DNA from: a virus
Taxonomy: Duplodnaviria > Heunggongvirae > Uroviricota > Caudoviricetes
IMG/VR virus record: IMGVR_UViG_2778261418_000020
Span: 1 to 2,024 of that record
Length of the DNA stretch: 2,024 nucleotides
Reading direction: 5' to 3' (one strand)
A program made the position numbers and the translations under genes. The notes beneath the pieces were generated by a model. The model worked only from the letters and a program-made list of their open reading frames with translations. It was not told the origin of the DNA and did not search any database. Below, piece after piece: positions 202 through 2,024 of this stretch. The first letter of the stretch is position 1. Every line of letters begins with the position of its first letter.

Positions 202-246
202 GAGTGCTATCTCCGAATAGGGAATCGAACCTGCAAATCAGGCAAG

Positions 247-267
247 AAAAAACCGCCATCAGGCGGC
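247..267 (-). terminator. Rho-independent terminator candidate between the zinc-ribbon gene and the excisionase-like gene
   Basis: Minus-strand RNA reads GCCGCC-UGAU-GGCGGU followed by UUUUUU: a 5 bp all-GC stem (plus 253-257 pairing with 262-266) with an optional closing G-U, a 4-nt loop (258-261) and a 6-U tract (plus A-run 247-252). It sits 65 nt downstream of the stop at 333-335 and about 45 nt upstream of the ATG at 201. Confidence 0.55.
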
Positions 268-332
268 TTGGTGTTCTTTCAGTTCTTCAATTCGAATATT
301 GGTTACATTGTTTTCATATATGAATAAATAAA

Positions 333-512
333 TTAGCTTTTTTCGTTGCCTTCGCGTTCTTTATTAATTTTGACAAAATCGTTTTTACCACGCTCTCCAA
401 ATGCGTCTTTAGAGTCGTTGTATCCGCAATCGCAGCACACATAATCATCAGACCATCCACGCATTGTTTTTTCTTTTGCAATATTTCCAGAACCGCATTT
501 TGGACAAGACAT
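333..512 (-). CDS. Small Cys4 zinc-ribbon protein, 59 aa (MSCPKCGSGN...CCDCGY...), function unknown
   Basis: Two cysteine pairs (CPKCG and CCDCG) spaced about 20 residues apart, typical of a zinc ribbon. ATG at 510-512 is preceded by a consensus Shine-Dalgarno GGAGG (plus 520-524) with a 7-nt spacer. The ORF track begins 11 codons earlier at TTG 543-545, which has no RBS, so the ATG start is preferred. Stop TAA at 333-335. Lysine/glutamate-rich C-terminal tail. Confidence 0.6.
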   Translation of the reverse strand: MSCPKCGSGNIAKEKTMRGWSDDYVCCDCGYNDSKDAFGERGKNDFVKINKEREGNEKS

Positions 513-608
513 ATCACTACCTCCAAAGCATGAGTGAGATGACAACGTAACATTGATTGGAGATTAACAATAGATTGCTGATGTAAAAGATATGTATAAG
601 CTTCGCTT

Positions 609-1016
609 TCAAAGTGGAGGCTCTGGTAGCGGCATCCAGTGTGTGACATTGCTAATCAGGTCATATTCATTAGTTTGAGGATGGTTGCCGCTATCATCTC
701 CATATTTAAGACTCTCCATAAAACCATAATGCTTATTCCCATTAACTCTCACAAAACCGTAATAAGCTGGTATAACGCCGATCTCACACGTAACCAGTAA
801 AGGAAAACTAGTTCTCCAATTTAGCTCGCCAATTACAGGCATTCGCTCACTACAGCTTATCCAACCATCCTGAGTTACCGGAGGGTTGCCAGCCTTGCGC
901 ATGGCAATCTCCACGATTTCAACCATATCTCCTGGCGGAATTTTGCAATGCTGACCAAAGCGCTTCTGCTGTCTGGCATATTCGAGGATGTGCTCCAGCT
1001 TGGTACGATTAATCAT
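609..1016 (-). CDS. DUF551-domain phage protein, 135 aa
   Basis: C-terminal half has the DUF551 signature recalled from lambdoid prophage proteins (GWISCSERMP...VTHWMPLPEPP). ATG at 1014-1016 overlaps the upstream stop (ATGA at 1013-1016). Shine-Dalgarno GGGAG at plus 1024-1028, 7 nt upstream of the ATG. Stop TGA at 609-611. Confidence 0.75.
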   Translation of the reverse strand: MINRTKLEHILEYARQQKRFGQHCKIPPGDMVEIVEIAMRKAGNPPVTQDGWISCSERMPVIGELNWRTSFPLLVTCEIGVIPAYYGFVRVNGNKHYGFMESLKYGDDSGNHPQTNEYDLISNVTHWMPLPEPPL

Positions 1017-1396
1017 GATTTATCTCCCTTAAGCATGGCAGCACGGCAGGCGTTCCAGCCAGCTGTTCGCCCAAGCGCGTAAACTTCAGATGGCTCAAGA
1101 TAATCAATGTCCTGCCCGTCCTCATCGTCGTTCTCAGGTAATGCAGCAGGTACTACCGGTACTGGCGGGGCGGCGTAGACTTCAATAATCCCATTATCAA
1201 TAGGCCATTCTCCATCCTTGAGATAGTCACTTGTGCCGTCAACTTGCTGTTCAGCAATGTGGAATGCACCAACTGGCTCTGCCTCAAGCGATGCCAGTGC
1301 AATTCGTGCCAGTTCCATTTGTTCGCCACGAGTAAGCCCGTTTTCAAGCGGATTTTTAATGAACAATTCAATACGTTCTTTGGTAATAGTGGTCAT
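1013..1396 (-). CDS. Hypothetical phage early protein, 127 aa, with acidic proline-rich linker; possible Ead/Ea22-like C-terminal motif (unverified)
   Basis: Complete ORF with ATG at 1394-1396. Shine-Dalgarno AAGGA at plus 1404-1408 with 7-nt spacer, overlapping the stop codon of the upstream gene. Stop TGA at 1013-1015 overlaps the next gene's ATG. Predicted helical N-terminus (LTRGEQMELARIALASLEA), then AAPPVPVVPAALPENDDEDGQDIDY linker, then GWNACRAAML tail. No family assigned with confidence. Confidence 0.65.
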   Translation of the reverse strand: MTTITKERIELFIKNPLENGLTRGEQMELARIALASLEAEPVGAFHIAEQQVDGTSDYLKDGEWPIDNGIIEVYAAPPVPVVPAALPENDDEDGQDIDYLEPSEVYALGRTAGWNACRAAMLKGDKS

Positions 1397-1406
1397 TTGT
1401 TAGTCC

Positions 1407-2024
1407 TTAAACTGCTAGTTGCAATTGCATTTCAAAGCGGTCGCGTTGTTCACAATACGCAAGAGAACCAGGGCTATTGTGTGCCTCAATCCGTTCTACC
1501 ATTAATGCTGCGCGTGTCTCTTTACTTGCAGGTGCATAAGCCCCAGACCAGGCTTTATCAATACCGATGTTTCGAGCGACGTTCGTACTATCTGCGCTGG
1601 CTAAGGGTAATTTTGTGAATATCAGCGGATTTAACATGCGCAATCCATGTAGTTTCGTAACCGGCTGACCATGCCCATCAACAATGTGACGAATCAGGTC
1701 TTTCATTCTGGCTACCGCAAGAGTTGGGCGCTTTACGTCATAGTCGCCACAACTACCGATAGCCACTCGCGGAAACTCATTGCACAAATGAATAAATCGC
1801 TCGTCACTTTCATTCATGTGCCACACTGGAACGCCAGCTAGTTTTCCGTGAGGCCACTCATTCAGAAGCGCATCATTTTCCTCCTCTCCGCCATCAATAA
1901 CATCCGGGATAATGGCAAAATCGAATCCTGGGTGATTCTTCCAGCGAGCAACAAACTCGTAGTAATCGCTCCAGTCGATTTTGTTTTTGCCAGCTGCTTT
2001 CCAGGCGGTGAATGCACCGTTGTC
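1407..2024 (-). CDS. TGT-fold (queuine/tRNA-guanine transglycosylase-like) protein, candidate phage DpdA-type DNA transglycosylase; partial, 5' end outside window
   Basis: Open minus-strand frame with no stop from 2024 down to TAA at 1407-1409, giving 205 codons in the window. The ORF track starts at an internal GTG (1824-1826), but the frame is open upstream to the window edge, so the true start is beyond 2024. Motifs in TGT order and with roughly TGT spacing: DNGAF (2010-2024) versus TGT DSGGF; FDFAIIPD (1902-1925) versus TGT IVMIFDE; AIGSCGD (1743-1763) in the glycine-rich position; LHGLRMLNP (1626-1652) versus LMGVGKP; SADSTNVARNIG (1563-1598) versus TGT DMFDCVMPTRNARNG, which holds the nucleophile Asp. 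Compared against E. coli Tgt from memory only. Confidence 0.55.
   Translation of the reverse strand, partial: DNGAFTAWKAAGKNKIDWSDYYEFVARWKNHPGFDFAIIPDVIDGGEEENDALLNEWPHGKLAGVPVWHMNESDERFIHLCNEFPRVAIGSCGDYDVKRPTLAVARMKDLIRHIVDGHGQPVTKLHGLRMLNPLIFTKLPLASADSTNVARNIGIDKAWSGAYAPASKETRAALMVERIEAHNSPGSLAYCEQRDRFEMQLQLAV

Follow-up and report, generated by a model that had tools for sequence, protein, structure and literature searches.

The DNA under study, referred to as the window throughout, is a stretch of 2,024 nucleotides corresponding to positions 1 to 2,024 of the IMG/VR virus record IMGVR_UViG_2778261418_000020. It is 100% identical to the end (last 2 kb) of the Escherichia coli contig NOSA01000009.1 of GCA_002521165.1 (locus L404), and all of its genes are read from the minus strand. 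In the direction of reading these are a gene for a TGT-like (transglycosylase-like) protein, two genes encoding proteins of 127 and 135 amino acids (aa), the latter harbouring a DUF551 domain, the zinc-ribbon gene eaG and, finally, the excisionase gene xis. According to a first-pass annotation, the three small proteins encoded next to the TGT-like gene may serve the transglycosylase as accessory subunits or specificity factors or, as a fallback, represent independent cargo. We find that the TGT-like gene is a swappable cassette independent of the three small genes, to which the fallback idea conforms well. Very probably, the window displays the tail of a pL operon made up of independent accessory cassettes which were joined by recombination at gene boundaries, that is, ordinary phage mosaicism. 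The arrangement itself is a one-off mosaic combination within a well-known kind of region.

Positions 1-1396 of the window, which comprise the 127-aa, DUF551, Eag and xis genes, recur with 99.86% identity in three independent assemblies (loci L401 to L403). In these assemblies the match reaches precisely to the start codon of the 127-aa gene; beyond it, a gene encoding 63 amino acids takes the place of the TGT-like gene. Comparison of L401 with the TGT-carrying locus L001 places the other cassette boundary at the stop codon of an Ead/Ea22-like gene. The TGT-like gene and the 63-aa gene thus represent alternative cassettes of one and the same slot. Inheritance as a unit free of internal recombination boundaries is not what we observe, given the break in homology at the 127-aa start codon and the 38 different clusters of genes found downstream of closely related TGT genes.

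Direct reading of the sequence confirms the coordinates of the four genes as well as the 10-nt junction, the ATGA overlap and the 96-nt spacer described in the first-pass annotation:

1407-2024, minus strand: TGT-like open reading frame, 3' 205 codons, with its TAA at 1407-1409 and open at the edge of the window
1397-1409, minus strand: TGT/127-aa junction, consisting of the TAA stop, an overlapping AAGGA Shine-Dalgarno sequence and the 10-nt spacer GGACTAACAA up to the next ATG
1013-1396, minus strand: 127-aa gene, ATG at 1396-1394, predicted to encode the N-terminal and middle modules of an EaA/HkaE-type protein without a DUF551 domain of its own
1013-1016, minus strand: ATGA overlap, where the TGA ending the 127-aa gene runs into the start ATG for the 135-aa DUF551 protein
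609-1016, minus strand: 135-aa DUF551 gene, stop at 609-611, with the DUF551 domain at the C-terminus, behind an N-terminal module of about 45 aa peculiar to this protein
513-608, minus strand: 96-nt spacer with a strong GGAGGT ribosome-binding site for Eag, part of a block conserved with HK620
333-512, minus strand: zinc-ribbon gene eaG (Eag), 59 aa, ATG at 512, the same as the RefSeq call "Eag protein"

Position 2024 is the physical end of the contig, and the TGT-like gene is cut there by an assembly break and not by biology; in RefSeq genomes its full length amounts to 251 aa. Matches to PHROG families with E values of 1e-24 to 8e-83 identify the open reading frames as real genes.

Relatives of the small genes and viral loci carrying a TGT gene were collected as the 80 best matches per query, and for the small genes the loci with enough upstream sequence were counted. 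On these viral contigs a TGT-like gene is located upstream of just 4 of 71 relatives of the 127-aa gene, 2 of 72 relatives of the DUF551 gene and 6 of 75 relatives of eaG, and not one of the nine closest relatives of the 127-aa protein (92-98% identical) is preceded by it. In 79 viral loci whose TGT gene is 93-100% identical to that of the window, the first downstream open reading frame falls into the 38 clusters mentioned above, with lengths of 39 to 454 aa, and a stand-alone 127-aa gene like that of the window follows in none of the 79. The set of 5426 complete E. coli genomes contains 204 with the TGT segment and 329 with eaG (union 518); both occur together in 15 genomes compared to 12.4 expected by chance, and no genome of this set contains at least 80% of the window in one place. 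Profile searches around TGT-like homologues from 78 species, which range from Enterobacterales to Acidobacteriota and Actinomycetota, returned DUF551 and Eag in no case and a 127-aa-like protein in two. The commonest neighbours in these species, namely DNA methyltransferases as well as replicative-helicase-like and putatively repressor-like proteins, are ordinary prophage early genes. A conserved partner of the TGT-like family was considered and rejected, as no neighbour family is kept across the 78 species.

Some points weigh against our reading. The co-occurrence samples consist of the 80 best matches per query and are not random draws. The 10-nt junction is kept in 56 of the 79 E. coli-type TGT loci, in 43 of the 79 the next gene opens with the N-terminal module (about 46 aa) of the 127-aa gene, and some fragment of window positions 609-1396 is present in 189 of the 204 TGT-carrying genomes. 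Together with the TGT stop lying 10 nt from the next start, the Shine-Dalgarno sequence overlapping it and the subsequent ATGA overlap, the junction and module counts might be taken to favour the idea of the first-pass annotation that the three small proteins, as accessory subunits or specificity factors, are kept in fixed proportion to the transglycosylase via translational coupling. We nonetheless regard this idea as extremely improbable. The 99.86% identical block retains all three small genes with the 63-aa gene in the TGT slot, the TGT-like gene is upstream of only a few relatives of each small gene, its homologues in 78 species are devoid of any DUF551 or Eag nearby, and the genome co-occurrence with eaG equals chance. 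Furthermore, a TGT gene is missing from P22 and HK620 even though they possess the N-terminal module, DUF551 and Eag, and in the DpdA-only phages MED16 and 7-11 the neighbours of the corresponding gene are unrelated. Gene-neighbourhood conservation above chance, by which the first-pass annotation had proposed to check the link, is not seen; instead, the small genes and the TGT-like gene occur freely without one another, an outcome which it had itself named as contradicting its proposal. We read the association of the TGT gene with the N-terminal module as a recent physical linkage with recombination breakpoints inside the next gene, since the TGT genes concerned are nearly identical and since P22 EaA and HK620 HkaE possess the module without a TGT gene.

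The constancy of the junction (exactly 10 nt in the said 56 loci, across 38 downstream clusters) might also be explained by a generic coupling device in which the Shine-Dalgarno sequence within the stop region sets the expression of whichever gene follows, which would constitute a regulatory but not a functional link. We consider this explanation doubtful, though clearly less so than a subunit relationship: recent common descent suffices to account for the conserved spacing, as the TGT genes are 93-100% identical and the breakpoints are situated within the next gene or at its beginning, and equally short junctions are found all along the operon.

Two further observations concern the TGT slot and its surroundings. 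In E. coli ETEC4075 (NZ_CP122652.1, 3415778-3416433) the 127-aa region is kept, whereas all but the final 80 nt of the TGT-like gene are gone, apparently as a further variant produced by recombination or deletion at the TGT/127-aa junction. In addition, a second TGT-like subfamily, 35-37% identical, is located between the DUF551 gene and xis, i.e. roughly at the position of Eag, in L097 (5411-6157), L108 (5832-6578) and L171 (4626-5372). A match of similar identity (35.5%) occurs in phage HK106. TGT-like cassettes have entered this operon region more than once.

The 127-aa and DUF551 genes are best described as a split version of a protein which is usually fused and of which P22 EaA and HK620 HkaE are representatives. 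The 127-aa protein matches positions 116-183 of phrog_60 and, over its full length, phrog_5117; its residues 1-54 match the N-terminus of HK620 HkaE with 74% identity, and its residues 1-80 match P22 EaA with 59%. The 135-aa protein matches phrog_24004 with residues 1-56 and positions 203-279 of phrog_60 with residues 40-134, and Pfam family PF04448 (DUF551) is recognised in residues 51-134 (E 1.1e-11, 45.8 bits versus a cut-off of 22). The 127-aa protein has no match in Pfam or NCBIfam, and for neither of the two proteins was a sequence match found in the PDB. A single reading frame encodes both parts in 40 of 77 related loci, and in six they are separate. The consecutive phrog_60 matches in conjunction with the frequent in-frame fusion lead us to the conclusion that the pair corresponds to a split EaA/HkaE modular protein, whose 135-aa part has gained an N-terminal module of its own (phrog_24004). 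Proteins of the EaA/HkaE type would be built from an N-terminal module common to them, a middle part that varies and, at the C-terminus, DUF551 as a portable domain. Portability of DUF551 is documented by its presence in Ea22 variants, in YfdS and in a dATP/dGTP pyrophosphohydrolase (PMC10834534, PMC4776307). The pairing of the two overlapping genes, to which the first-pass annotation had drawn attention, is biologically meaningful in view of the 40 loci with a single reading frame. It is not tied to the TGT-like gene, as the overlapped two-gene form exists without that gene in L165, L166, L099 and L401 to L403.

In locus L004 both parts share one frame which is broken only by a strain-specific stop. 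This gene of E. coli AST19 (L004, 5366-6019, minus strand) contains an in-frame stop after codon 14, and RefSeq annotates a DUF551 protein of 191 aa from an internal start; it may be a fused gene decaying in a remnant prophage. Fragments of the 127-aa/DUF551 region (609-1396) match 2774 of the 5426 complete E. coli genomes in up to nine places each, 457 of these places being on plasmids, and none of the 5426 genomes contains at least 80% of the pair. Genes of the DUF551 type are extremely numerous, and their mosaicism is fine-grained.

The surroundings of the four genes point to the promoter-distal tail of the pL (early-left, ea/exo-xis) operon of an HK620/P22-like lambdoid prophage. Positions 1-643 of the window are 98.6% identical to the xis-eaG region of HK620, and parts also match P22. 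The annotations of HK620 and P22 as well as those of RefSeq give the order xis, cII-dependent promoter, terminator, eaG/hkaD and the DUF551 gene eaA/hkaE. Contigs which encode identical 127-aa and 135-aa proteins exhibit a run of 19 co-oriented genes. In L401 to L403 their order is N36 antiterminator, cIII, kil, Rad52-type or ERF recombinase, SSB, anti-RecBCD, Ead_Ea22, the four-gene region and xis, with which the TGT-carrying L001 and the annotations of HK620 and P22 agree, and in full-length relatives about 15 further genes follow upstream on the same strand, reaching back to a gene for an N-type antiterminator. The four genes hence occupy the place of the lambdoid ea/exo-xis region, on the same strand between the recombination/anti-RecBCD genes and xis-int and downstream of an N-type antiterminator. 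Beyond xis, L404 continues with the host genes dsdC, dsdX and dsdA; the prophage is integrated beside dsdC, at the site used by HK620-like phages.

The first-pass annotation had described a compact four-gene operon. Co-orientation and tight packing of the genes hold true, whereas the unit is truncated by the end of the window and in reality comprises about 19 genes. In L401, 11 of 18 junctions are overlapping or measure at most 16 nt, including those between genes of unrelated function such as cIII/kil and recombinase/SSB, and overlaps of four bases are frequent in the annotated left operons of P22 and HK620. As short spacers and overlaps are general along the operon, the packing carries no specific information on a shared function. 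Co-transcription of the four genes, as part of the far longer operon, is very likely because of their co-orientation, their tight packing and the lack of an internal terminator or promoter-like site.

The remaining features of the window are located downstream of eaG:

250-269, minus strand: intrinsic terminator with the hairpin stem AAGCCGCC/GGCGGTTT followed by TTTTTT
208-246, minus strand: probable cII-dependent integration promoter of the pI type, transferred from HK620 (NC_002730, 1664-1702) via the 98.6% alignment
233-245, minus strand: TTGC-N5-TTGC repeat, read from the sequence and matching the cII site of HK620 (NC_002730, 1689-1701)
1-201, minus strand: xis (TorI-like excisionase gene), 66 aa, beside the attachment site and the host gene dsdC

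The product of xis is 100% identical to HK620 HkaC, which is annotated as TorI, and matches the excisionase family phrog_66 (E 2.7e-8). That a single terminator follows the zinc-ribbon gene, as noted before, is borne out by a consensus scan, in which the site at 269-250, with an 8-pair stem containing five G-C pairs, is the sole minus-strand terminator-like site of the window. The fold of this region amounts to -21.1 kcal/mol (z -2.08). The hairpin is bidirectional, though stronger on the minus strand, and in P22 the same hairpin is annotated on the opposite (plus) strand, where it terminates the antisense aI RNA. It presumably also insulates the putative cII-dependent promoter from readthrough which has not been antiterminated. 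The consensus scan detected no sigma-70-like promoter in the window, compared to 4.0 expected from shuffled sequences. An own promoter for Eag within the 96-nt spacer was considered and discarded, since the spacer contains no consensus match and the "promoter" annotated in HK620 falls past the terminator. An Rfam scan of the window at E values up to 1 returned no RNA family, hence no riboswitch (e.g. for preQ1) and no known small RNA. On the plus strand, that is, on the non-coding strand inside the 127-aa gene, a weak terminator-like hairpin is present at 1338-1351 (CCGTTTTCAAGCGG then ATTTTTAATG). It is probably a chance product, as the window contains four such sites versus 1.8 expected.

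In lambda and P22, N-type antitermination carries pL transcripts through terminators into xis-int. By analogy, transcription would start far upstream at pL, and N-antiterminated transcripts would run via cIII, kil, the recombination genes, abc2 and Ead/Ea22 through the four genes, cross the hairpin at 250-269 and reach xis and int. Transcripts devoid of antitermination would end at 250-269, and the cII-dependent promoter just beyond the terminator would serve integration. It speaks against our reading to some extent that antitermination and readthrough in this prophage are carried over from what is known of lambda and P22.

Eag is a four-cysteine zinc ribbon which is 95-97% identical to P22 EaG and HK620 HkaD and, altogether, 95-100% conserved. 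It matches phrog_2945 (E 4.9e-31) and in 76 of 80 loci its gene comes after a gene ending in DUF551. It would represent a conserved small zinc-ribbon cassette with a strong ribosome-binding site of its own, placed last before the terminator. The Pfam match of Eag to the archaeal zinc finger HVO_2753_ZBP remains below threshold (23.2 bits versus a cut-off of 33.2), and its sequence matches in the PDB are weak and confined to generic zinc fingers. Membership in the Lar family (PF14354) was considered, but with 22.4 bits for Lar_restr_allev versus a cut-off of 28.6 (E 1.5e-4) we did not adopt it and keep it as a lead only; precomputed annotations also label this hit "weak", and the similarity to Lar may be limited to the metal-binding knuckles. 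A PADLOC scan of the four proteins returned no defence-system model, and in Pfam and NCBIfam DUF551 alone passes a threshold.

As to the TGT-like protein itself, its sequence relationships characterise it as a probable short, stand-alone relative of DpdA without phage precursor genes. The fragment encoded in the window matches PHROG 887 ("queuine tRNA-ribosyltransferase") with an E value of 8e-83. BLASTP aligns it over 200 residues to the DpdA of the Pantoea phage MED16 (gp38), with which it is 37% identical (E 4e-42) and has the motifs LDNGAF and ADSTN in common, and tblastn detects the homologue of the Salmonella phage 7-11 with 34% identity (E 4e-23). The protein is, hence, homologous to phage DpdA proteins which have been experimentally linked to 7-deazaguanine in DNA. 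Both MED16 and 7-11 possess only dpdA and no precursor genes, and their DNA contains low levels of dADG (PMC8306585, PMC6884629). In an AlphaFold model built from 32 homologues, strands and helices alternate in a beta/alpha barrel; the quality of the model is moderate (pLDDT 65.7, pTM 0.71). Asp47 (in LDNGAF) and Asp191 (in ADSTN) are invariant in these 32 homologues and common to MED16 DpdA; we presume that they resemble the two catalytic Asp motifs of TGT. The TGT-like gene is also present in the phages BTP1, SPN3UB and, with about 69% identity, SfI. The family comprises more than 7800 proteins of about 250 aa, all listed members of which are named "hypothetical" or "uncharacterised", and a literature search returned no paper on this TGT-like gene in lambdoid prophages.

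A number of findings argue against an assignment to the DpdA proteins. Neither Pfam (PF01702, TGT) nor NCBIfam gives a match to the 205-aa fragment at E values up to 0.1, and none of the listed homologues has a precomputed Pfam domain. PDB sequence searches with the protein and with a TGT profile produced no meaningful match. The conserved cysteine cluster of the canonical TGT zinc site (CxCxxC...H) is not seen in the 32 homologues, among which only Cys127 is nearly invariant. Moreover, the DpdA-only phage Orion lacks any modification (PMC6884629). The missing family and PDB matches, the model pLDDT of only 65.7 and the non-conserved zinc-site cysteines could be reconciled with another TIM-barrel enzyme acting on tRNA, on a nucleotide or, as Cap10 does, on a protein instead of a DNA 7-deazaguanine transglycosylase. 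We deem this alternative unlikely, since the homologues in MED16 and 7-11 are the sole TGT-family genes of phages containing dADG (PMC8306585, PMC6884629), and the PHROG 887 match as well as the invariant LDNGAF and ADSTN motifs with one Asp in each also stand against it, as do the genomic neighbourhoods of distant homologues.

In seven of the 78 species loci (Erwinia, Amaricoccus, Solirubrobacterales) a Vut_1 (PF02592, YhhQ-type) transporter gene ends exactly at the start of the TGT-like gene:

Vut_1 genes adjoining TGT-like homologues: L328, 3537-4001; L353, 3480-4001; L389, 3405-4001; L391, 3465-4001; L393, 1653-2183; L398, 1653-2195; L399, 3429-4001

E. coli YhhQ is an importer of preQ0 and preQ1. 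YhhQ-type genes abutting distant TGT-like homologues lend independent support from context to a 7-deazaguanine substrate. About 19 of the 78 species loci (e.g. L342, 4763-5422, and L392, 4696-5712) have a DNA methyltransferase gene no more than 4 kb away from the TGT-like homologue, with MT-A70 in five loci and N6_N4_Mtase in 14, which suggests a recurring DNA-modification neighbourhood in prophage early regions.

Most likely, the enzyme has a DpdA-like activity with host preQ0 as its substrate. It would swap guanine in DNA for preQ0 made by the host (FolE/QueD/QueE/QueC pathway of E. coli), an exchange that would yield low-level modification without helpers encoded by the phage. A more elaborate scheme, in which the helix-rich module of about 46 aa docks variable effector domains (MazG-like pyrophosphohydrolase, DUF550, DUF551) onto the DpdA-like enzyme to form, in lambdoid prophages, a modular anti-restriction unit of the type "DNA modification plus nucleotide pool" drawing on host preQ0, appears highly improbable to us.

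The results call for caution in the interpretation of such regions. In lambdoid early operons, genes are by default packed with short spacers, embedded Shine-Dalgarno sequences and ATGA overlaps, which is no sign of a shared function; conservation of the neighbourhood must therefore be tested before partners are proposed. On the positive side, the analysis reveals a split form of the EaA/HkaE modular protein, and it shows that prophages in few E. coli strains (204 of the 5426 complete genomes) have in their pL operon a short DpdA-like gene unaccompanied by precursor genes, for whose distant relatives the adjacent YhhQ-type genes support a 7-deazaguanine substrate.

Among known systems, Eag resembles the Lar family in its small size (about 60 aa), its being encoded by a phage and its CxxC...CxxC zinc ribbon, albeit with a score below the family cut-off. 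From the bacterial DpdA of the dpd island (PDB 7ui4) and from canonical and archaeosine TGT the TGT-like protein differs by the lack of a Pfam TGT match and of the zinc-site cysteines, and from the dpd island also in that no DpdB or DpdC partners were found near its homologues. Its counterparts are found in the dpdA-only phages (group 3 of Hutinet et al. 2019; DpdA/TGT_1 cluster of the MED16 paper), whose proteins, such as MED16 gp38 and 7-11 gp032, are likewise short (about 235-260 aa). As in MED16 and 7-11, the gene is accompanied by no phage queC, queD, queE or folE and lies among unrelated small early genes. These two phages are virulent, whereas the TGT-like gene of the window, like that of BTP1, SPN3UB and SfI, belongs to temperate lambdoid prophages; its identity to the tested relatives is modest (34-37%). 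The region as a whole corresponds to eaA-eaG of P22 and hkaE-hkaD-hkaC of HK620, the equivalent of the exo-xis region of lambda and Stx phages, and is found at the same position between the recombination genes and xis/int. Genes of the ea/exo-xis regions are non-essential accessory genes, mostly of unknown function (PMC3824215, PMC10834534). The window shares with P22 and HK620 the strand and the order of a gene ending in DUF551, the 96-nt spacer, eaG, the hairpin, the cII-dependent promoter and xis. It differs from both by the TGT-like gene, which they do not contain in this region, and by the presence of separate 127-aa and 135-aa genes with an extra N-terminal module in place of the single fused gene for EaA or HkaE. 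Its mosaic boundaries fall at gene junctions, just as they do in the ea regions of P22-like phages.

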